A stretch of DNA of 64,000 nucleotides from an uncultured Bacteroidales bacterium (GTDB taxonomy: Bacteria > Bacteroidota > Bacteroidia > Bacteroidales > VadinHA17). The position numbers and the translations under genes were made by a program. This document shows, piece after piece, positions 1-36,841 of the stretch. The DNA lies in assembly GCA_963736735.1 (NCBI GenBank), contig CAVTPX010000008.1, positions 62,183-126,182 on the forward strand. Direction: 5' to 3'. The notes beneath the pieces were generated by a model. It was not told where the DNA came from, did no database searches, and saw only the letters and a program-made list of their open reading frames with translations. Within the stretch, counting starts at the first letter, position 1; each line of letters begins with the position of its first letter.

Positions 1-1171
1 TTCCAGTTCAGCCGCTTTCCTCACAGAAACATCACGACAAACAATTAACATTTCTGCAGGAGTCCCGTTTGCACCTTTAAGCGGTGAGGAGGAGAGTTCT
101 CCCCAGAAAATTGTACCGTCAAATTTCCGTAGTTCGTATTCCCTGGTCTCGGGTGCTGTATTTCCAGAAACAATATCATTGAATCGTTCAATTACCAGGT
201 TATGACGAATCAGGCGCCAGCCAGTTCAGGATTGGTGTTCCGACAGCTTTTACACCGGGAGGAACGCCAAATATTTCAAGGGCCTTAATTGAGCAGTAGG
301 AGACAATTCCGGCGAGATCAGTAATAATAATCCCGTCTGGTGACACATCAATCAGGGTACGGTAATAAGCTTCAGATTCAATTACTTTTTGCTCCATTTG
401 CTTGCGTTCCGTAATATCCCTCATGCTTCCGATAATTTTTACCGGATGTCCGTCAGAACCAAACAGCAACTTTGCAGAGACAGAGCAGGAAACCAGTGAT
501 CCGTCACGGTTCCTCAGGGTAATTTCGTAGTCAGAGATGCTTCCCTTCTCACCCAACTTGTCCACCAACAATTGACGTTCCTCGGGAAAGGAGTAAATTT
601 CAGACATAGACTTACCGATGAGGTCCTCCCTTTTATACTGTCCCCGTGAAAGCGCCAGGATCGAAGGGCTGATTTCAAGGAGGGTGCCATCGAGTGAAGA
701 CTCGTAATAGAGATCCTGCACATTTTCAAATATACTGCGGAACTTTTCTTCGCTTTCCCTCAGTTCCTTTTCTGCTGCTTTCTTCTCCAGGAGCATCTCT
801 ATCTTGGACATGGCTGCCCGTATGGATGGAATAAGGCGTGACAGGTTCTGTTTGAGGACATAATCATCGGCTCCGGCTTTCATGCATTCAACAGCAATCT
901 CTTCATTCACTGAACCTGTAACAAGTATGAACGGGGTAAGCGGACTTAAATCATTTTTAAGTAAGAGAGCTTCCATTCCGTCAAACTGAGGCAGTGCATA
1001 ATCGGAAATGATCAGATCAGGTACGAAAGACATTAATTCATTTACATAATCCTTCCGGTTTTCGACGTGTCTCTTTTCAAAGTTTATACCGTTTCTGGAT
1101 AACTCATGCCAAAGTATCTCTGCATCTGAGGGCAAGTCTTCCACAAGAAGGATCTTTATAAGGTCTTTCAT
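1..1171 (-). pseudogene. Response-regulator receiver (REC) + PAS signalling protein; C-terminal part runs off the left edge; reading frame broken near 200-212
   Basis: ORF 200..1171 begins MKDLIKILLVEDLPSD...IISDYALPQFDG (REC), followed by PAS-like segments. After the stop at 200-202 the minus strand continues in another frame with the rest of the same PAS fold (RHNLVIERFNDIVSGNTAPETREYELRKFDGTIFWGELSSSPL...VCRDVSVRKAAELE) down to base 1. Confidence 0.8.
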
Positions 1172-1700: not shown

Positions 1701-4109
1701 TTAAACAAGTTTCTTTTCAACCGGCAAGGTAAAAAAGAATGTAGCGCCTTTTTCAGGTTCCCCCTCAGCCCATACCCTTCCTCTGTGACGAAGGATAATT
1801 CGCTTAACAATAGCCAGTCCCACCCCATTGCCTTCAAATTCCATGGTGCTGTGAAGCCTCTGGAAAACACCAAAGAGCTTGTTTACATATTTCATGTCGA
1901 ATCCTACACCATTGTCTCTGACATAATAAACGGTTTCATCTTTTTCCTGATATGAACCAATGATTATTTCGGATTTCTCCTCCTTCGCCGAGTACTTTAA
2001 AGCGTTTGAAATAAGATTAGTCATTACCTGCTTTATCAGCACTGAATCTCCGAATGCCGGTGGAAGTTTCATTACGGAGAATGAGATCCACTCCCTCTCT
2101 TCAGGCAAGGTAAGTTCCTGGAAAACTGAACTGGAGAGTTGTACCATACCGATCCTGAAAAAATTCAGATGGCTCCTGCCTATCCGTGAAAAAGCCAGCA
2201 GGTCATCAATAAGCTGGCCCATGCGGCTTGAACTAGATTCAATTATTCCACAGATTCTTTTGCCTTCATTATCAAGCACTTTCCCATAGTCCTCCTTCAG
2301 TATCGATGTAAAGCTGTGAATAGATCTGAGAGGCGCCCTCAAATCGTGAGAGACAGAATAACTGAAAGCTTCAAGTTCTTTGTTTGCAGCCTGCAAAAGT
2401 AACTTTGACTTCTCCAGATCTGCAGTAATTTTTTCCCGGAGAGTAATGTCTGTCATGTTCACAAGCACAATTCCTGAATCCGATTCCGGTGCTGGGAAAA
2501 CCATGCGGATAAGTACATGGATCAGATCCTGGTTCAGAGTCCTTAGTGCATGGTCTGTTTCAAAGATCTCAGATCCGCTGCAAAGAGCTGTCAGCTCATC
2601 TGCGAACCCCGGAAGGACGTCAGGTGTAGAAAATATTGCTGAAAGAGATTCCAGCAGTTGCTCTTTGTTTTGTGCCCCGAAAAGTACAAGTGTAGCCGGA
2701 TTCACATCAATAATTCTCACGCTCAACAATGCAGAGCTTATAAAATCAGGATGTAAATCGAAATAGGATTTAAAGTCTGTTACTCCATTCTCCTTAAGTT
2801 TTTTCACGGCAGAAATTAAATCTGACCAGTCTTCTTTCCAGATCGAGACCGGTGACACTTCAAAAATCTCCTTGTAGTTTTGCTGACTTATCTCCAGTTT
2901 TTTCGTGCGGTCGGATACGCGCTGTTCGAGCTCCTCATTGAGCGATCTGATCTCATCCTCCGCCCCTTTCCTTGCCGTTATATCATTGACTGCAGTAATG
3001 AACCACATGGGATCTCCCTTTTCGTTCCTTTCCAGGTAGACAGAGACTTCAGCCCAGATAATGCTGCCATTCTTATGGATAAATCTTTTTTCAAAACTGG
3101 TACGGTCTTTCTTCCCGTTAAGCAGCATACCGGCCTCTTCTTCACTCTTCTTAATATCATCAGGATGGGTAATATTATGCCAGGTCCCGGATCGCAACTC
3201 CTCTGCGGTATAACCCAGAAGGTCACAGAAACTCTGATTAACATCCAGGGATCCGTCGATGCCGGTCATGGATTTGCCAAGCGGAGATTTATCAAAGAGA
3301 TTTCTGAATTTCTTCTCACTTTTTTGCAGGTCTTCCCTGGCCTGTTTTTGTTCAGTGATATCCAGGATGGCGCCAATGATTCCTGTAACCTCATTCAGGC
3401 TGTTTTTACAGACGGCTTTATGGAACTGCACATCATGCTCCCTGCCATTACTGTCGACAAGCCTTGACTCATAAACCTGAGTGGCGCTGGCGTTAAACAA
3501 TTTATTGTCCATTTCGGAATACTTCATTGCCAGTTCGGGAGGATGAAACTCAAATACAGTTTTACCGGAAAGCTGCTCTCTTGTATAACCAAAAAGAGAG
3601 ACAAAGGAATCATTTGCGTCGAGGTATCTTCCGTTAATGTCTTTATAGAAAACCGGAATCGGGATTGTGTTGAGAAGGTTGCTTAAAAAGGCTTCGCTTT
3701 CCCTGAGAGCATTCTCGGCTTTCCTTCTTTCTGTTATATCCTGGATTACACCGAACACTATCCGGTTTTTTCTGTCATACTGACTTATTGAATGAATATC
3801 TCTAATCTCACCGGTATCAGCGGTTCTTATTTTAAATTCAATGTCATAAGGTTCATCCTTTTCGATCAGATTCTTAAGTGCTGCATCGAGCGGCTGACGA
3901 TATTCGGGCAGGGGGATTGTTTTAATTGTCTCATAATCAAGCATTCCCTCCGCCAGGCCATATAATTTATTTGCGCCATCAGATGCAATAATCCTGTTTG
4001 ATTCAAGATGGAGTTCCCAGTGGCCTGATTTGAATGTAAGTTCAGCCCTTTTTAATCTTGCTTCGCTAATACGGATTGCTTCTGCAGCTTCAATGCTTTT
4101 TAATTTCAA
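1701..4109 (-). CDS. Multi-PAS sensor histidine kinase (HisKA + HATPase_c)
   Basis: 802 aa. Several PAS/PAC repeats (DITERRKAE, DITEQKQA, DITARKGAE). H-box SYSVSHDLRAPLRSI. N/G boxes LISNALKYS, VRDNGVGFD, GNGVGLAIV. TTG start, no TM segment. Confidence 0.9.
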   Translation of the reverse strand: MKLKSIEAAEAIRISEARLKRAELTFKSGHWELHLESNRIIASDGANKLYGLAEGMLDYETIKTIPLPEYRQPLDAALKNLIEKDEPYDIEFKIRTADTGEIRDIHSISQYDRKNRIVFGVIQDITERRKAENALRESEAFLSNLLNTIPIPVFYKDINGRYLDANDSFVSLFGYTREQLSGKTVFEFHPPELAMKYSEMDNKLFNASATQVYESRLVDSNGREHDVQFHKAVCKNSLNEVTGIIGAILDITEQKQAREDLQKSEKKFRNLFDKSPLGKSMTGIDGSLDVNQSFCDLLGYTAEELRSGTWHNITHPDDIKKSEEEAGMLLNGKKDRTSFEKRFIHKNGSIIWAEVSVYLERNEKGDPMWFITAVNDITARKGAEDEIRSLNEELEQRVSDRTKKLEISQQNYKEIFEVSPVSIWKEDWSDLISAVKKLKENGVTDFKSYFDLHPDFISSALLSVRIIDVNPATLVLFGAQNKEQLLESLSAIFSTPDVLPGFADELTALCSGSEIFETDHALRTLNQDLIHVLIRMVFPAPESDSGIVLVNMTDITLREKITADLEKSKLLLQAANKELEAFSYSVSHDLRAPLRSIHSFTSILKEDYGKVLDNEGKRICGIIESSSSRMGQLIDDLLAFSRIGRSHLNFFRIGMVQLSSSVFQELTLPEEREWISFSVMKLPPAFGDSVLIKQVMTNLISNALKYSAKEEKSEIIIGSYQEKDETVYYVRDNGVGFDMKYVNKLFGVFQRLHSTMEFEGNGVGLAIVKRIILRHRGRVWAEGEPEKGATFFFTLPVEKKLV

Positions 4110-4307
4110 CAGTCATGCCTTCAGTATTGTTTTTTGAGGCCATCCATGTTGCTTACGGGCCAATGTTTTATTAATGATTGAATTACAATAATATTCACAA
4201 TGGGAAGGTACTGGAATACAATAAAATAAGTTGTAAGGGTTTGACTGAAAATATTGTAGGGGATTGCCTACAGGCGCCGGGCCAAAGAATCAGTAATAGT
4301 GATACTG

Positions 4308-4943
4308 TTATACCAGACCTTCCTTTATTGCATATACAATTATATCGGATGTGGTCTTAAGGTTCAGTTTACCAAGTATCCTTTCCCTGTAAGTGCTTAT
4401 AGTTTTTGGACTCAAAGACAATTCTTTCCCAATGCTGCTTATTGTTTTTCCGGAAGCAAGAAGTGCAAGAACCTCAAGTTCCCGGGCTGACAACTCGGCA
4501 TATAACGGCTTATCCTTGTCAGTTATAAAGTCCAGTGTAATCCTGTCAGCGAGAGAGGCAGTAATATATCGGGTACCCCTGGCTGTTTTTACAACGGCAT
4601 CAATAAGCTCCTCAGGGGCACTTGCTTTTGTAAGATACCCCATAGCCCCAAGCTTCAGGGCCCTCAGGGCATACTGTTCCTCTGGATATATACTCAGGAT
4701 CAAGACAGATGTGGCGGGTTTTAATTTTTTAACTTCACTGATAAGTTCCAGTCCGCTCCTCCCCGGCAGTGATATGTCAAGGAGAACAACGTCAAAATCC
4801 TTTTCACCTATCTTTTCGAGAAGTTCCTTACCGTTGCAGGCTTCTTCTATCAACCCGAATCTCAGGTCCTTATCATCTTCAAGAATCTGTCTGATTCCCT
4901 GGCGGACAATAGGGTGGTCATCTGTTATCAGTACCCGTATCAT
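4308..4943 (-). CDS. NarL/FixJ-family response regulator (REC + LuxR HTH)
   Basis: 211 aa. IRVLITDDHPIVRQG...VVLLDISLPGRSG receiver, and C-terminal LSARELEVLALLASGKTISSIGKELSLSPKTISTYR LuxR-type HTH. Confidence 0.92.
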   Translation of the reverse strand: MIRVLITDDHPIVRQGIRQILEDDKDLRFGLIEEACNGKELLEKIGEKDFDVVLLDISLPGRSGLELISEVKKLKPATSVLILSIYPEEQYALRALKLGAMGYLTKASAPEELIDAVVKTARGTRYITASLADRITLDFITDKDKPLYAELSARELEVLALLASGKTISSIGKELSLSPKTISTYRERILGKLNLKTTSDIIVYAIKEGLV

Positions 4944-4980: not shown

Positions 4981-6833
4981 TCAACTTAAAGGTAACACAT
5001 TTGGAATTACCACCAGGACCCTTGTACCAATTCCCTTCTTTCCTGTAATATTCAATTCACCCCCAAAGGCTCTTGCCCTTTCTCTCAACCCCATCAGTCC
5101 AAATGATTTAGGGTCAGTCAATTTTGCCTTATCAATTCCAATCCCATTGTCTCTTACAGTTAACTTGAGCTGGTCTTTGCCTGATTCAATTGTTATCCAG
5201 ACATTTTTTGCCCTGGAGTGCCTTGAAACATTTGTAAGTGACTCCTGAATTATCCTGTAAAGCATAATAGACAACTTGTCTTCAACCTGGAATTCTGAGG
5301 GTAAAGTTTTGAATGCGGCTTTTATACCGGTATTCTTTGTAAACTGCTCCAGCTGCCACTCAACCGCTGTTTTCAAACCAAGATTATAAAGCATCCCCGG
5401 CCACAGATCTGCTGAGATATTCTGAACAGTTGCAACAGTGTCATCAATCATTCCGAGAATGCCGGTAAGTTTGTTCACAACCAGTGGCGATTGTACCCCT
5501 ATTCTGGTTTTCAGCCATGAAAAATCCATTTTAAGGGCAGTCAGTTTCTGGCCAAGGTCATCATGCAGATTAAGTGAAATTCTTATCCTTTCATTTTCAC
5601 GGGCTTCCTCAATATGCTGTTCAGCTCCCGGAGAGCATCGCTTGACTTTTTCAGGTTCTCCTCATAATTCATCCTGTCAGATATGTCTAACCAGGTAACA
5701 ATTACCCTTGAGAGGCTGTAGAAACTGTCAGACATTACCTGAAGCCGGAGATTCAGGTGTTTCAATTTGCCATCGGGGGTTTTTAACTGAATATCCCTCT
5801 CGGCACGTTTCCTTCCCTCAGCCAATAATGCCAGTAATTCTGCAAAAATGATAATTGATTTCCTGTTAAAAAGCGTTGGAAGCTTAAGGGTAAGGTCAGA
5901 AATATCCTTTACCCCAAAATAATTCAGTGATGTCACGTTGACATCTGTTATTCTCACCAGTGAAATGCAATAGACAGTTTTTTCCGGATTTTCCCTGAAG
6001 TAGGAAAGAAAATCATGTACATCCCTCTTTTTCAGATTTTCAAGACATTCCTTTACCCTTGAAAAGTCAGCTTCCCATGTTGGAATGGTTGAGTGATTAA
6101 AAAGCATGCGATACCTGGCCTCACTCTTCCGCAGAGACATTTCCAACACTTTCCGGTCTGTTATATTAACTGCCAAACCTACTATTCCTGTCACCTCGTC
6201 CTTCTCATTGATTATCGGGGCTATATGATTCTCGAAGAACACACTGTTCAACTCATTGGTTAAAGTCATAGTTTCACCGGAAAGTGCACGGTCAAGTACT
6301 TCTTTTCCCGTTATCTTATTCCCTGAATTTTCTATAAAAGAAAGAGATCCGTAGAGTTTATAGGCAGACACCCCGATGTTCTCTCCGGATCTTAATCCTG
6401 CCTTCGTCAGTTCGCGGCCTTCTGATAAAGTAAAAATGCCCTTATTGTCTGTAGCAAAAAAAGTTACAGGTGCATTTGAAAGAACGCTTTTCAATAATAA
6501 CTCAGATTTGAGCTCTTTTGTAATATCACGGATAATTATCACCGTTCTCTGCTTGCCGTCCTCAGCCTTATATACGGTAGAGGAAATGTCGACCGGAAAA
6601 AGTGAACCGTCTTTCCTGATCATTCTGATCACCCCCCTGGCTTTTCCGCTTCTTTCCCTTTCCTCAAGCAGTTTCGGTAGCCGTTCATCAGTCAGGTCAA
6701 CCACTCCGTAACGTCCCTGCTTTATAATCTCTGCCTCGGACCTGCCAAGAATTGTGCAGGCGACGGGGTTGGCAGCGAGGATGCTCCCGTCAGGTGCTGT
6801 AATTAGAATACCGTCCATGCTGTTTTGAAACAC
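4981..6833 (-). pseudogene. PAS sensor histidine kinase of the HisKA_3 (NarX/DegS-like) type, split by a frameshift near 5612-5620
   Basis: ORF 5583..6833 (PAS domains) ends ...ALRELNSILRKPVKMKG*. A different frame reads EQHIEEARENERIRISLNLHDDLGQKLTALKMDF (HisKA_3 H-box) and runs straight into ORF 4981..5529 (HATPase: VRDNGIGID, GLMGLRERA). The ORF opens with GTG at 6833. A natural ATG at 6879 (MKKVKQPENETFFDAV...) is out of frame by one base across a T7 run at 6870-6876. Confidence 0.8.
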
Positions 6834-7085: not shown

Positions 7086-7496
7086 ATGATCTACCTGACA
7101 AGGAGAGAAAGGTTCTGCGCAGCGCACAGGATGTACCGCGAAGAGCTGAGTGACGAAGAGAACCAGAAGATATACGGAAAGTGCTCCAATCCCCTGTGGC
7201 ACGGTCATAACTATGTACTGAAAGTGACCGTCAGGGGTGATGCCGACCCGCAGGTCGGGTATTTTATGAATGCAACCAGGCTGAAGGAGATAATTGCAGA
7301 GAAGGTTATCGTGAAACTCGACCACAAAAACATGAACCTGGAGACTGACTTCATGAAGGGCAGGGTGGCAACCACGGAGAACCTTGCCATGGCAATATGG
7401 GGTGAACTCGAGGCCCCTCTCAGGGTTGAGGGTGCGACGCTTCACTGCGTGAGAATTGAAGAGACAGAAAATAACTTTGTTGACTATTACGGATAA
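7086..7496 (+). CDS. queD: 6-pyruvoyl-tetrahydropterin synthase family protein (PTPS/QueD)
   Basis: 136 aa. RERFCAAHRM...GKCSNPLWHGHNYVLKVTVRG is the Cys/His-Gly-His zinc site and spacing of PTPS-type enzymes. Sits 3 nt upstream of folE. Confidence 0.85.
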   Translation: MIYLTRRERFCAAHRMYREELSDEENQKIYGKCSNPLWHGHNYVLKVTVRGDADPQVGYFMNATRLKEIIAEKVIVKLDHKNMNLETDFMKGRVATTENLAMAIWGELEAPLRVEGATLHCVRIEETENNFVDYYG

Positions 7497-34216: not shown

Positions 34217-34233
34217 CAGAAGAAAGGATAGGT

Positions 34234-35430
34234 TTAAATTTCTGCCGCTGCAGCGGTCATGACCCTCATCACATTGCCTCCCCAGATCTTCGCAATGTCT
34301 TCATTACTGTAGCCTCTGCGGATAAGCTCTTTCGTGATATTCTTCATCATTGAAACGTCTGTACATCCCTCGATGCCGCCGCCGCCGTCAAAGTCTGAGC
34401 CGATACCAACATAGTCCACCCCTATTACATCTACCACATGCTGAATATGATTGACAGCGTCAGCCACTGTAGCCAGTTTGGTGTATTTCTCCCGAAGGGT
34501 TGAAAACTCGCTCCAACGCTGCTCCTGCTGTGCTTCGGTAAGCTCACCCATAGCCTTCCATTTCTCGCGCAGCTCCTTAACCTTCTCATCGAATTCAGGA
34601 TTGGGCTCAGGCTGTTTGAGGTAGTCACTGAGGATGCATATCTGTATCACACCGCCGTTTTTCTTCAGTGCCAGCAGCATGTCATCATTCAGGTTGCGGG
34701 GACTTTCGCAAAGTGCCCGGCAGGACGAATGAGAAGCAATTACAGGTGATTTGGTGATCGCAAGGACATCATAGAAAGACTGGTCGGATATGTGAGAAAC
34801 ATCAACCATCATTCCTAATCTGTTCATCTCCCTGACAACCTCCTCACCGAAGGGAGAGAGTCCCTGATGTTCCGGGCCGGCGGGGTCAGTGGATGAATCG
34901 CATATGTCATTGTTTGACGAATGGCAGAGTGTTATATACCTGGCACCCAGATCATAGTACTGTTTCACTTTTGTAATGTCAAGTCCTATCGGGTAACCGT
35001 TCTCGATTCCGATGAACGCGGCTATCCTGCCCTCAGCCTTCAGTCGTGATGCATCCGCCGGGGTAAGTGCCAGTCCGGCCATCTCAGGATAACGTGCAAC
35101 ACTTTTAAGGATGGAATCGAATGTTGTCAGGGTATTCTGGTGTTCGATAGCATATGCCTCCGGTGTTCTGGGTCCCTGTCCGATGAAGATCGCAAAAAAC
35201 TCCGCATCCAGTCCTCCTTCCTTCATCCTTGGAAAGTCAACACAACCATTGTCGTTGCGCGCTCCAAGGTCGTAACCGTTACGTGTGAGTCTCATCGGAG
35301 TATCACAGTGTGTATCAACTGTGAGCATATTCATATGAAGCTTGTCAGCCTTGCGGTCAATCTTCTCTTCGTCACTGATACACCCGGCAGTGAGCCCGGC
35401 AAGGGTCAGCAGCATAATTAACATTTTCAT
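34234..35430 (-). CDS. Membrane dipeptidase (peptidase M19), lipoprotein
   Basis: 398 aa. LTLAGLTAGC lipobox, VDTHCDTP, ITLCHSSNN, VDVSHIS, VIASHSS, GIGSDFDGGGG. Confidence 0.9.
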   Translation of the reverse strand: MKMLIMLLTLAGLTAGCISDEEKIDRKADKLHMNMLTVDTHCDTPMRLTRNGYDLGARNDNGCVDFPRMKEGGLDAEFFAIFIGQGPRTPEAYAIEHQNTLTTFDSILKSVARYPEMAGLALTPADASRLKAEGRIAAFIGIENGYPIGLDITKVKQYYDLGARYITLCHSSNNDICDSSTDPAGPEHQGLSPFGEEVVREMNRLGMMVDVSHISDQSFYDVLAITKSPVIASHSSCRALCESPRNLNDDMLLALKKNGGVIQICILSDYLKQPEPNPEFDEKVKELREKWKAMGELTEAQQEQRWSEFSTLREKYTKLATVADAVNHIQHVVDVIGVDYVGIGSDFDGGGGIEGCTDVSMMKNITKELIRRGYSNEDIAKIWGGNVMRVMTAAAAEI

Positions 35431-35531
35431 TTAATAAGGTTTTAGCAATGGTAAAGATAATCGATTGAGTGACGGGTGTTCCAACTGCGGGGGCAATATA
35501 AACTTAAAAAACGTTAAGAAGCAAGGAGCAT

Positions 35532-35586
35532 GGGGACCGAGCGTAAAGAAATTGCCCAGTGGGCATTTTTAGCGAGGGGACAGACA
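35532..35586 (+). repeat. 55-nt module, copy 1 (contains A-tract/stem/T-tract hairpin 35549-35570)
   Basis: ggggaccgagcgtaaagaaattgcccagtgggcatttttagcgaggggacagaca. 50/55 identical to copy 2. Confidence 0.9.
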
Positions 35587-35596
35587 GTGGGGTGGC

Positions 35597-35661
35597 AGCA
35601 TGGAGCATGGGGCATGGAGCATGGGGGAGCATGGAGCATGGAGCATGGAGCAAGGGGCATG
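35597..35661 (+). repeat. Heptamer array 1 (~9 units of RGCAWGG)
   Basis: agcatgg agcatgg ggcatgg agcatgg (ggg) agcatgg agcatgg agcatgg agcaagg ggcatg. Confidence 0.9.
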
Positions 35662-35682
35662 TGGAACGCCGCAAGGGGGGAC
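35659..35682 (+). repeat. Degenerate copy of the GGAAC...GGGG hairpin module
   Basis: atgtggaacgccgcaaggggggac, compared with ctgtggaaccccgaaggggggac. Its centre is cc-GCAA-gg. Confidence 0.6.
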
Positions 35683-35805
35683 ATGGAGCATGGAGCATGG
35701 GGAATGGCGCATGGGGCATGGTAGCACGGAGCACGGAGCAAGGGGCATGGAGCAAGGGCATGGAGCAAGGGGCATGGAGCAAGGAGCATGGAGCACGGAG
35801 CAAGG
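35683..35805 (+). repeat. Heptamer array 2 (~17 units; partly a 14-nt agcaagg-ggcatgg super-unit)
   Basis: atgg agcatgg agcatgg ggaatgg cgcatgg ggcatgg tagcacgg agcacgg agcaagg ggcatgg agcaagg gcatgg agcaagg ggcatgg agcaagg agcatgg agcacgg agcaagg. Confidence 0.9.
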
Positions 35806-35830
35806 GGCTGTGGAACCCCGAAGGGGGGAC
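35806..35830 (+). repeat. GGAACCCCGAAGGGG hairpin module, copy a (overlaps the start of 55-nt module copy 2)
   Basis: ggctgtggaaccccgaaggggggac. cccc-gaa-gggg is a hairpin. Confidence 0.85.
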
Positions 35831-35879
35831 CGAGCGTATGGAAAATGCCCTGTGGGCATTTTTAGCAAGGGGACAGACA
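35825..35879 (+). repeat. 55-nt module, copy 2 (perfect 9-bp hairpin aaaatgccc-tgt-gggcatttt at 35842-35863)
   Basis: ggggaccgagcgtatggaaaatgccctgtgggcatttttagcaaggggacagaca. Confidence 0.9.
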
Positions 35880-35884
35880 TGTGG

Positions 35885-35953
35885 GCATGGAGCATGGAGC
35901 ATGGGGCATGGAGCATGGGGCATGGAGCAAGGAGCAAGGGGCATGGAGCAAGG
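35885..35953 (+). repeat. Heptamer array 3 (~10 units)
   Basis: gcatgg agcatgg agcatgg ggcatgg agcatgg ggcatgg agcaagg agcaagg ggcatgg agcaagg. Confidence 0.9.
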
Positions 35954-35988
35954 GGCTGTGGAACCCCGAAGGGGTGACATTATGATAG
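35954..35988 (+). repeat. GGAACCCCGAAGGGG hairpin module, copy b, with 3' extension tgacattatgatag
   Basis: ggctgtggaaccccgaaggggtgacattatgatag. The last 28 nt are repeated exactly at 36010-36037. Confidence 0.9.
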
Positions 35989-36008
35989 ATTGACAGAAAG
36001 AATACCAC

Positions 36009-36037
36009 AGAACCCCGAAGGGGTGACATTATGATAG
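36009..36037 (+). repeat. GGAACCCCGAAGGGG hairpin module, copy c (28-nt perfect direct repeat of copy b)
   Basis: agaaccccgaaggggtgacattatgatag. It directly abuts the LysE-gene terminator. Confidence 0.9.
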
Positions 36038-36071
36038 CAAAAGCCCCGTCCGCCAATTGGCGGATCGGGGC
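36037..36071 (-). terminator. Rho-independent terminator after the LysE-family gene
   Basis: Minus strand reads gccccgatccgcc-aatt-ggcggacggggc followed by ttttg. 12-bp stem with one bulge, about 120 nt downstream of the stop at 36194. Confidence 0.7.
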
Positions 36072-36193
36072 AGCCATGAAAAGAATGAAAATTTGCTTTT
36101 GGACAGTAAAAGCACAGTAAAATTAACATTTTTAAGTACCGAAAACAAGAAAAACCGGCGATTTTACACTCACCGCAAGCAGAAATGGAATAA

Positions 36194-36841
36194 TTAGTAT
36201 CTGACAGATATGAAAAGGGTTAGCAGCACCATTATGCCAATTATAATGATGAAAGCACCTGTAAAACGTGTCAGAACAACAATATTCCTCAGTCTCATGG
36301 TACGGCTGAAACGGCTTACAGTATAGCTGAATGCCAGCCACCACGCCGATGCACCGGTGAAAATGCCTGTGACAATTATCAACGGGATCAGGTACCATGG
36401 ACCCGTGAAACTGACATTCATACCCGGAAACATAGCAAGAAATATAAATATCGAAAAGGGATTTGTCAGCGCAAGACCGAATACCGAAAAGAAATCCTGA
36501 GCCGGCGTGCCCTGAATGTCATCACGGGCTCTTCTGCGGATATCCCCAACAGGATTCGACAGGAAAAGCTTCAGTCCTATCGAGGCCACAAGCACACCTG
36601 CAATAAGCTTAATCCAGAAAGCCTCTTCATTTATAAAGCCAATAATGAATGAAAATCCGAGTCCCGCAATGATTGCAAAAATTGTATCAGCAGCCGCAAC
36701 CCCCATGCCTGTCATGAATCCGGAAAAATGTCCCTTGCGAAGGGTTCGGTTAATCATAAGCATTGCATTGGGTCCAGGAGGTGCAGAAACACTCAGGCCC
36801 ATTATGAAACTCTTAAAAAACAGCAACAATGCCGGAAACAT
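36194..36841 (-). CDS. LysE/RhtB-family amino-acid exporter
   Basis: 215 aa, ~6 TM helices, N-terminal GLSVSAPPGPNAMLMINRTLRKG is characteristic of LysE-type translocators. Confidence 0.8.
   Translation of the reverse strand: MFPALLLFFKSFIMGLSVSAPPGPNAMLMINRTLRKGHFSGFMTGMGVAAADTIFAIIAGLGFSFIIGFINEEAFWIKLIAGVLVASIGLKLFLSNPVGDIRRRARDDIQGTPAQDFFSVFGLALTNPFSIFIFLAMFPGMNVSFTGPWYLIPLIIVTGIFTGASAWWLAFSYTVSRFSRTMRLRNIVVLTRFTGAFIIIIGIMVLLTLFISVRY

Follow-up and report, generated by a model that had tools for sequence, protein, structure and literature searches.

A heptamer array joined to hairpin modules belongs to a dispersed intergenic repeat family of uncultured Bacteroidales

We analyzed a repeat locus between two genes in a 64,000-nucleotide stretch of DNA from an uncultured Bacteroidales bacterium (GenBank assembly GCA_963736735.1, contig CAVTPX010000008.1, positions 62,183 to 126,182), hereafter called the window. 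A preliminary description, made from the letters alone, had noted tandem G-rich heptamers and several larger modules in the gap between an M19 dipeptidase gene and a LysE-family gene. Both genes lie on the minus strand, and Pfam confirmed their assignments (Peptidase_M19 and LysE). The gene coordinates agree with the gap length given earlier, which is 763 nt from the dipeptidase start (35430) to the LysE stop (36194). The repeat takes up about 520 bases of this intergenic space, upstream of the dipeptidase gene and 3' of the LysE gene. The positions of the individual features are summarized in Table 1.

Tandem Repeats Finder gave two arrays with a period of 7 nt, one at 35597-35802 (28.6 copies, consensus AGCATGG) and one at 35885-35950 (9.4 copies). 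The plus strand as assembled carries 38 7-mers of the form xGCAxGG (13 AGCATGG, 11 AGCAAGG, 9 GGCATGG, 3 AGCACGG, and 2 others), which is the number of degenerate heptamers estimated before, and the spacing from one heptamer to the next is exactly 7 nt in 28 of 37 cases. When a 14-mer probe consisting of two heptamer units was applied with up to 2 mismatches allowed, 30 matches were found in the locus and 1 elsewhere, and approximately 0.8 is expected for the whole window. The 14-nt super-unit noted previously, in which AGCAAGG alternates with GGCATGG, was placed in block 2. The heptamer part is a long degenerate microsatellite. The earlier statement that the locus is not a simple microsatellite consequently does not hold for this part.

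The two 55-nt modules (M55) were present at 35532-35586 and 35825-35879 as previously noted and were 91% identical to each other. M55 consists of an A-tract, a variable GC hairpin and a T-tract, with a total length of 55-65 nt. The stem differs between copies and sites (TGCCC/GGGCA, TACCC/GGGTA, and TCCGCC/GGCGGA) and the flanks are conserved; homologues with other stems were found in the related contigs L122, L134, and L135. The module scores terminator-like on both strands, and it is plausible that it acts as a bidirectional terminator or insulator. The GGAAC cores are situated at 35663, 35812, and 35960 in three GAACCCCGAAGGGG hairpins, with a spacing of 148-149 nt, and the 28-nt unit GAACCCCGAAGGGGTGACATTATGATAG occurs exactly twice, at 35961 and 36010. 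In self-alignments, 35531-35684 matched 35824-35980 with approximately 88% identity and 35756-35830 matched 35904-35978 with 93% identity. These results indicate that the 148- and 293-nt spacings of the macro-units, which had been noted before, are real and are due to segmental duplications. Altogether, the window copy comprises 38 heptamers, two M55 copies, and four hairpins of the type termed P, and no further copy of the 55-nt, 28-nt or hairpin modules was found in the 64-kb window. The preliminary description was therefore accurate as to the anatomy of the locus and as to its being the only one of its kind in the window.

Table 1. Positions of the repeat modules and of neighbouring and related features. 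Positions refer to the window or to the contig named.
Sequence	Feature	Positions	Strand	Remarks
Window	Dipeptidase gene	35430..34234	-	
Window	LysE-family gene	36841..36194	-	
Window	Heptamer block 0	35520..35533	+	AGCAAGG AGCATGG; directly after the conserved flank ...GTTAAGA, proximal to the putative promoter
Window	M55 copy 1	35532..35596	+	A-tract, hairpin TGCCCAGTGGGCA (35553-35565), T-tract, then GGGGACAGACAGTGGGGTGGC; terminator-like on both strands
Window	Heptamer block 1	35597..35661	+	About 9 units
Window	Degenerate hairpin module P'	35659..35682	+	TGTGGAACGCCGCAAGGGGGGAC; aligns with P at 35954-35978
Window	Heptamer block 2	35683..35805	+	About 17 units, including the 14-nt alternation
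Window	Hairpin module P	35806..35830	+	GGCTGTGGAACCCCGAAGGGGGGAC; stem-loop CCCCGAAGGGG at 35816-35826
Window	M55 copy 2	35825..35884	+	Hairpin TGCCCTGTGGGCA at 35846-35858
Window	Heptamer block 3	35884..35953	+	10 units
Window	P with 14-nt tail C	35954..35988	+	28-nt end unit at 35961-35988
Window	Spacer D	35989..36009	+	ATTGACAGAAAGAATACCACA; 21 nt, between the two end units
Window	Second 28-nt end unit	36010..36037	+	Right boundary of the element after GATAG
Window	Terminator hairpin	36044..36069	-	GCCCCGATCCGCCAATTGGCGGACGGGGC, then TTTTGC; in the flank, outside the repeat; inner palindrome TCCGCCANNTGGCGGA (36049-36064)
Window	Candidate small RNA	36037-36120	-	About 80 nt
Window	Dipeptidase-glyoxalase gap	34217-34233		17 nt
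L122	End-unit tail	4562-4570		CTATCATAA on the strand of the carboxyltransferase gene
L122	Copy of the palindrome	4651-4664		
L134	Copies of the palindrome	1876-1889, 1968-1981		
L001	Copy of the palindrome	5747-5760		
L139	Copy of the palindrome	1920-1933		
L002	Array of unrelated heptamers	7197-7222		Dipeptidase-glyoxalase gap
L003	Array of unrelated heptamers	7228-7320		Dipeptidase-glyoxalase gap
L134	Array of unrelated heptamers	431-463		Dipeptidase-glyoxalase gap
L141	Array of unrelated heptamers	~4205-4320		Dipeptidase-glyoxalase gap
L140	Repeat of about 47 nt	~3100-3250		Dipeptidase-glyoxalase gap; three copies
L139	Extra open reading frame	2049-2765		238 aa; LysE-dipeptidase gap
L002	LysE gene as called	5127-5534		135 aa
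L019	Saprospiraceae composite repeat	5335-5827	Complement	
L043	Saprospiraceae composite repeat	3105-4004	Complement	

We scanned metagenome contigs of related Bacteroidales with a pattern in which the hairpin adjoins a heptamer. The scan matched the orthologous site (L134) and three non-orthologous intergenic sites, which lie between a carboxyltransferase and a thioredoxin-like gene (L122), between a nitroreductase and an S15 X-Pro dipeptidyl peptidase gene (L138), and immediately past the stop codon of a gene for a GSDH-type sugar dehydrogenase (L135, with the same site in L146 and L151). All copies exhibit the same order on the G-rich strand, namely the heptamers, the GGAACCCCGAAGGGG hairpin (P), an optional M55, and the 28-nt unit ending with GATAG, and the right boundary after GATAG is common to the window, L122, L134, and L138. 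The 28-nt unit is 96-100% identical across the sites; the sequence in the window is 100% identical to those in L138 (two copies) and L134 and agrees with that in L122 at 27 of 27 aligned nt (positions 2-28). The 79-nt block P-C-D-P-C of the window is 97% identical to its counterpart at the non-orthologous L138 site. No terminal inverted repeats or target-site duplications were seen at the four sites. Most of the pattern matches in the metagenomes were discarded because they were coding (the FIMNPEGV motif in formate-dehydrogenase-like genes) or represented unrelated GC-rich DNA, and the likeness of L130 to the 28-nt unit was too weak to count. These results indicate that the modules constitute a dispersed family. 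The preliminary description had stated that the locus fits no recognised class; since the modules occur at three further non-orthologous sites and intergenic heptamer arrays have already been described (PMC4679880, PMC4692102), that statement fails, and the element is not confined to the gap between the M19 dipeptidase and LysE genes.

At the GSDH site, the heptamers start directly after the stop codon in three lineages (L135, L146, and L151). They are followed by the hairpin in L135 and L146, and the L151 contig ends inside the hairpin-like GGAACTCCGAA. The heptamer content varies at this site as well. The GSDH genes of L135 and L146 share 85% nucleotide identity, with 70% at third codon positions, and the end unit of L146 is identical to that of the window at 26 of 27 aligned positions. 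Short-read contigs containing the GSDH site end inside the element or just after it, and L146-L149 end 74 nt past the GSDH stop. The contig ends at the element (L135, L146-L149, and L151) suggest a multi-copy repeat that breaks the assemblies of this clade. In L143 and L144, whose peptidase is 91% identical, the L138 site holds a diverged version without hairpins. In L122, the carboxyltransferase gene takes its final codons and its TAA stop from the end-unit tail.

The best matches of the dipeptidase were from uncultured Bacteroidales, and an exact look-up of the window dipeptidase returned no record. The gene order is kept in the relatives (RNase G, ECF sigma, EamA, LysE, gap, dipeptidase, and glyoxalase), but the content of the gap between LysE and dipeptidase varies. 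In L001 (contig_23886 of the MAG in ENA ERZ25039477), whose dipeptidase shows 95% protein and 91% nucleotide identity to that of the window, the gap holds 8 heptamers, one hairpin and a shortened module, and in L134 it holds approximately 7 heptamers with the modules in a different arrangement. L139 (dipeptidase 91% identical) has about 5 degenerate heptamers and no hairpin, and L002 (93%) has about 2, consisting only of AGCAGGAGCAAG. No heptamers were present in L140 (91%), L141 (84%), and L003 (81%). The unit number at this site is consequently 38, 8, ~7, ~5, ~2 or 0 among close relatives; the nucleotide divergence of the dipeptidase gene from that of the window is 9% for L001 and 12% for L002. 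In every filled allele (window, L001, L002, L134, and L139), the array starts at the identical point directly after ...GTTAAGA, where a conserved stretch that precedes the dipeptidase start has its edge. On its minus strand, this stretch contains TAAGTTTA, a 7/8 match to TAnnTTTG, which we take to be the Bacteroidetes -7 box, and it may thus hold the dipeptidase promoter. Because independent assemblies of relatives hold related, shorter arrays at the site, the existence of the feature, as distinct from its exact unit number, is not an artefact of the assembly of the window.

Several known kinds of element were compared with the locus. A CRISPR array was ruled out, in accordance with the preliminary description, since the units are 7 nt long, compared with 23-47 nt for CRISPR repeats, and contiguous, and the larger modules are separated by more repeats rather than by unique spacers. 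The earlier exclusion of a coding repeat was likewise borne out. The open reading frames (ORFs) of the array gave no Pfam match, and the length differences between alleles are not multiples of three, nor is the 7-nt unit; all six frames are open across the array because neither AGCATGG nor its complement CCATGCT yields a stop codon in any frame. No Rfam family matched at the gathering threshold on either strand across the window, and only chance-level matches with E values up to 10 were obtained in 35380-36250, which agrees with the earlier remark that no RNA family could be named. A miniature inverted-repeat transposable element (MITE) was rejected because the left end consists of heptamers and the right end of ...ATGATAG, so that the ends are not inverted repeats, and no target-site duplication is shared by the four sites. 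The stem-loop of P is 11 nt long and has no GTAG head, unlike a repetitive extragenic palindromic (REP) sequence, which is an imperfect palindrome of about 20-40 nt with a conserved GTAG-type head. Viral contigs gave 0 matches to three patterns, and a BLAST search of plasmids and phages with the whole locus gave a single weak heptamer-like match, to a Providencia plasmid, and nothing else.

Arrays of heptamers between genes form a described class. Heptanucleotides are the most abundant long simple-sequence repeats (SSRs) in most bacterial genomes and slippage has been proposed for them, according to Mrazek (2007) as cited in PMC4679880. For Beggiatoaceae, Cyanobacteria, and Bacteroidetes, the same source describes TAACTGA arrays and "assemblages of heptamer repeats" that are missing from close relatives (PMC4679880). 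The G-rich GGGNATC arrays of Xanthomonas and Nostoc vary between close relatives, their function is not established, and they lie nearer to the gene on the 5' side of the G-rich strand (PMC4692102). The four sites of the present family follow this rule, with the 5' end of the G-rich array near a gene boundary. In the window, L122, and L138, the 5' end faces the start of a gene on the opposite strand, about 60-90 nt away where measured, and at the GSDH site the array begins 0-3 nt past the stop of a gene on the same strand. We also scanned one genome per species for three RGCAWGG units. Among the matches listed were Nostoc, Calothrix, Microcoleus, Saprospiraceae (Ca. Opimibacter), Vicinamibacterales, and several metagenome-assembled genomes (MAGs) of Bacteroidales and Bacteroidia. 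Of the 62 intergenic RGCAWGG arrays from other phyla among the matches listed (L004-L120), 46 were nearer to the ORF on the 5' side (p = 2e-4, with crude ORF calls), and the median distances were 43.5 nt on the 5' side vs 174 nt on the 3' side. These results indicate that RGCAWGG arrays extend the position rule of GGGNATC. The arrays among these matches often adjoin an array of another heptamer and, in Saprospiraceae, CCCC-NNN-GGGG hairpins. The Saprospiraceae MAGs L019 and L043 carry composite repeats of their own; one example is an 86-nt macro-unit in three copies, with AGCATGG/GGCAAGG heptamers and a CCCCATCGGGG hairpin, and another consists of arrays adjoining CCCCGTAGGGG and CCCCTCTGGGG hairpins. 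Mosaics of heptamers and hairpins may therefore be widespread among the Bacteroidota.

In our judgement, the locus is probably one copy, enlarged at this site, of a mosaic intergenic repeat that is dispersed in, and specific to, a clade of uncultured Bacteroidales; it would have grown by slippage and recombination and be dispensable DNA. The element is polar and reads, on the G-rich strand, as (RGCAWGG)n, P, an optional M55, and the end unit. As the allele series suggests, the number of heptamers would be changed by replication slippage, and unequal recombination between the internal repeats would have generated the ~148- and 293-nt duplications seen in the self-alignments. The copy in the window would lie in dispensable DNA between the minus-strand terminator and the putative dipeptidase promoter. 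Since it has this position and relatives do without the element, the cell most likely does not depend on it for any function tied to its sequence, and it would persist as selfish or neutral DNA. Side effects are possible: the M55 hairpins may provide additional termination in both directions or insulation, and the array may alter the sequence environment on the upstream side of the promoter. The particular family appears to be undescribed, and its kind is already known.

Several points weigh against this interpretation. The copies found amount to four sites in all, with one copy in the 64-kb window, and no terminal inverted repeats, target-site duplications or transposase, the last of which was not looked for, came up to account for the dispersal. 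The terminator activity of M55 is a prediction, and the consensus used in the scan does not cover the terminators and promoters of Bacteroidota. Furthermore, the end unit is conserved beyond the neutral level (26/27 compared with ~70% at third positions), which could reflect functional constraint instead of ongoing copying, and the retention of the element at the GSDH site across ~15% nucleotide divergence also fits a function. An enlarged neutral repeat accommodates both observations only through ongoing copying or gene conversion; thus, a mobile element moved by a Y1-type transposase and a protein-binding RNA or DNA retain a small probability as explanations.

It is unlikely, though worth weighing, that the element is non-autonomous and owes its movement, in single-stranded form, to a Y1 (HUH) transposase (IS200/IS605 or RAYT type) whose gene lies elsewhere. 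Hairpin P, subterminal and 14 nt from the right end, would then be the recognition structure, and the heptamers would be the preferred target or a by-product of insertion. The polarity of the element and its sharp right boundary, the near-identical end units at different sites, the stop codon that an end unit provides to the neighbouring gene in L122, and the diverged version without hairpins at the orthologous site in L143/L144 are consistent with mobility, and a subterminal hairpin without terminal inverted repeats or target-site duplications fits a single-strand mode rather than a classical MITE. On the other hand, the left end has no hairpin, the GTAG motif typical of REP is absent, few copies were detected, and no clean empty site at high identity was recovered; no transposase gene came up in the 64-kb window and the short contigs, where none was looked for. 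We are equally doubtful of the fuller proposal that the array and the P units are an undescribed small polar mobile element of Bacteroidales, copied through a hairpin or single strand to gene boundaries, with neither inverted ends nor duplicated targets, and seeding or homing to heptamers. If it were true, the element would give a mechanistic link between dispersed hairpin repeats and the polar heptamer arrays known from Cyanobacteria, Bacteroidota, and further phyla, and recognition by a dedicated protein would be the reason why the end unit is conserved well above the neutral level.

Two proposals assign a role to the G-rich strand itself. The strand might be transcribed into a regulatory RNA or an mRNA 3' end whose many CAUGGAG/CAAGGAG motifs act like CsrB/RsmZ, binding or titrating an RNA-binding protein, with the P hairpin and the M55 terminator forming the 3' end. 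The repeated GGA-containing 7-nt motifs and the M55 hairpin with a T-run on the G-rich strand, in which the stems vary and the flanks are conserved, agree with this, and MacGregor proposed protein binding for other heptamer arrays (PMC4679880). The fold of the plus strand was also slightly better than those of shuffled controls (z = -3.0), and that of the minus strand was no better (z = -0.25). However, the plus-strand value arises from trivial slipped CAUG:CAUG pairs and from base pairing between the two M55 copies, and a large RNA structure was rejected on this ground. In addition, no promoter-like sequence common to the copies lies upstream of the heptamers, the G-rich strand is antisense to the adjacent gene at 3 of 4 sites, no Rfam family matched, and the array is absent or vestigial in relatives with a dipeptidase 91-93% identical. 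We regard an RNA role as quite improbable. Still fainter is the case for a non-B structure of DNA or RNA, in which the G-rich strand would form a G-quadruplex and the C-rich strand an i-motif. From a position immediately upstream of the promoter or right behind a stop codon, the arrays would tune the expression of the adjacent gene, as proposed for GGGNATC. It draws on the strong G skew (GC skew up to +0.49 in the locus), on 61 overlapping matches to the two-tetrad G2 motif, and on a position rule shared with the quadruplex-forming heptamers of Xanthomonas and Nostoc (PMC4692102). However, the locus contains only G2 tracts; a G-quadruplex was rejected since a search permitting loops as long as 12 nt gave no canonical G3+ motif and the minimum-energy structure computed by ViennaRNA, quadruplex energies included, has no quadruplex. 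Moreover, unit numbers vary widely with no preference for four, and relatives do without the array. Finally, we give very little credence to an assembly artefact or to an array length falsified by repeat collapse or over-extension. Degenerate 7-nt repeats over more than 400 nt are hard to assemble, and the short-read contigs of relatives break inside the element, but arrays and modules related to these were seen both at this site in independent assemblies (L001 and L134) and at other sites, the degeneracy of the units gives unique paths, and the internal duplications are diverged (88-93%) rather than identical.

The surroundings of the repeat showed further features. The 16-nt palindrome TCCGCCANNTGGCGGA lies inside the loop of the GCCCCG/CGGGGC terminator stem to the right of the repeat, and L003 has the plain stem without it. 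The same palindrome is the hairpin of the 55-nt module at other sites, and it has the look of a mini-palindrome that has become nested. Immediately beyond the right end of the repeat, the minus strand holds a candidate small RNA. Its parts are a 5' hairpin (GCUUUU/AAAAGC), a U-rich linker of 23 nt that is invariant (AAUUUUUCAUUCUUUUCAUGGCU), and a terminator; compensatory changes set the stem of this terminator apart in L003. The candidate is kept in 7 relatives, including L003, which has neither LysE nor EamA, and no Rfam family matched it; upstream of it there is a possible promoter of the Bacteroidetes type (CTTG, 20 nt, TAATTTTA). In regards to the convergent gap between dipeptidase and glyoxalase, which is only 17 nt long in the window, four relatives carry arrays of unrelated heptamers (GATTTGC, AGGCAAT, GAATTAA and others) and L140 carries a longer repeat (Table 1). 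Heptamer slippage is therefore a general trait of the lineage. The extra ORF in the LysE-dipeptidase gap of L139 had no Pfam match and lies between two copies, one complete and one partial, of the terminator/small-RNA-like element. The shortened LysE gene of L002 gave a weak Pfam match and may be a pseudogene, and in L001 the short-chain dehydrogenase and glyoxalase genes were called as a single 484-aa product.

For annotation, the locus should not be entered as a gene, even though a 158-aa ORF spans the repeat. It marks a repeat family that breaks short-read assemblies of this Bacteroidales clade, and it is a ready variable marker for separating close relatives. It also adds, from an uncultured Bacteroidales, a new case of the unexplained polar intergenic heptamer arrays that is physically tied to conserved hairpin modules, and the 28-nt unit, conserved beyond the neutral expectation, offers a handle on the origin of the array and on possible recognition by a protein.

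The STRR sequences of cyanobacteria were reportedly the subject of an account of intergenic heptanucleotide repeats by Mazel et al. in 1990. Like the intergenic heptanucleotide SSRs described since (PMC4679880, PMC4692102), the present array consists of tandem 7-nt units between genes for which slippage is suspected, varies in unit number and sequence between close relatives, some of which have no array, assembles several heptamers in one gap, and is polar, lying near the gene on the 5' side of the G-rich strand. With 38 units it stands at the long end of their range. It differs in that it is tied in a fixed order to hairpin modules that travel to different sites, and RGCAWGG, unlike GGGNATC, has no G3 tracts as needed for a canonical quadruplex.

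Enterobacteria have bacterial interspersed mosaic elements (BIMEs) and REPs, and Streptococcus pneumoniae has BOX elements; all are short non-coding mosaics that are dispersed between genes and composed of few module types in a set order. Their hairpins are palindromic, and BOX also contains tandem internal units (the 45-nt boxB) that vary in number. These elements are homogeneous within a lineage, often lie at gene ends, and can act as terminators or mRNA stabilisers. The present family is likewise a dispersed intergenic mosaic with a set module order, hairpins, and a variable tandem part, but it has no sequence similarity to them, no GTAG-type REP head, and a 7-nt microsatellite in place of the 45-nt boxB, and few copies were detected (four sites across the metagenome contigs of relatives and one in the 64-kb window). 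It also differs from REP/BIME in that no RAYT gene is known for it, the ORFs of the window not having been scanned for one; background on REP and REPIN sequences is given in PMC3116915. The nesting of TCCGCCANNTGGCGGA both in M55 and in the loop of an older terminator stem resembles the behaviour of the small dispersed repeats (SDR) of filamentous cyanobacteria, from which the present family differs in phylum and sequence. SDR are said to be very short hairpin units at many intergenic sites, in some cases nested within other repeats or hairpins (Elhai et al. 2008, Genome Res 18:1484, as cited in PMC3116915), and we know of no transposase for them. BrickBuilt, reportedly a MITE of Porphyromonas gingivalis (Klein et al. 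2015, Mobile DNA), is said to contain a minisatellite with units of tens of bases and to have terminal inverted repeats. It shares with the present element the character of a dispersed, non-coding Bacteroidales sequence whose length varies via an internal tandem repeat, and the present element differs from it in its 7-nt units and in having neither inverted ends nor target-site duplications.

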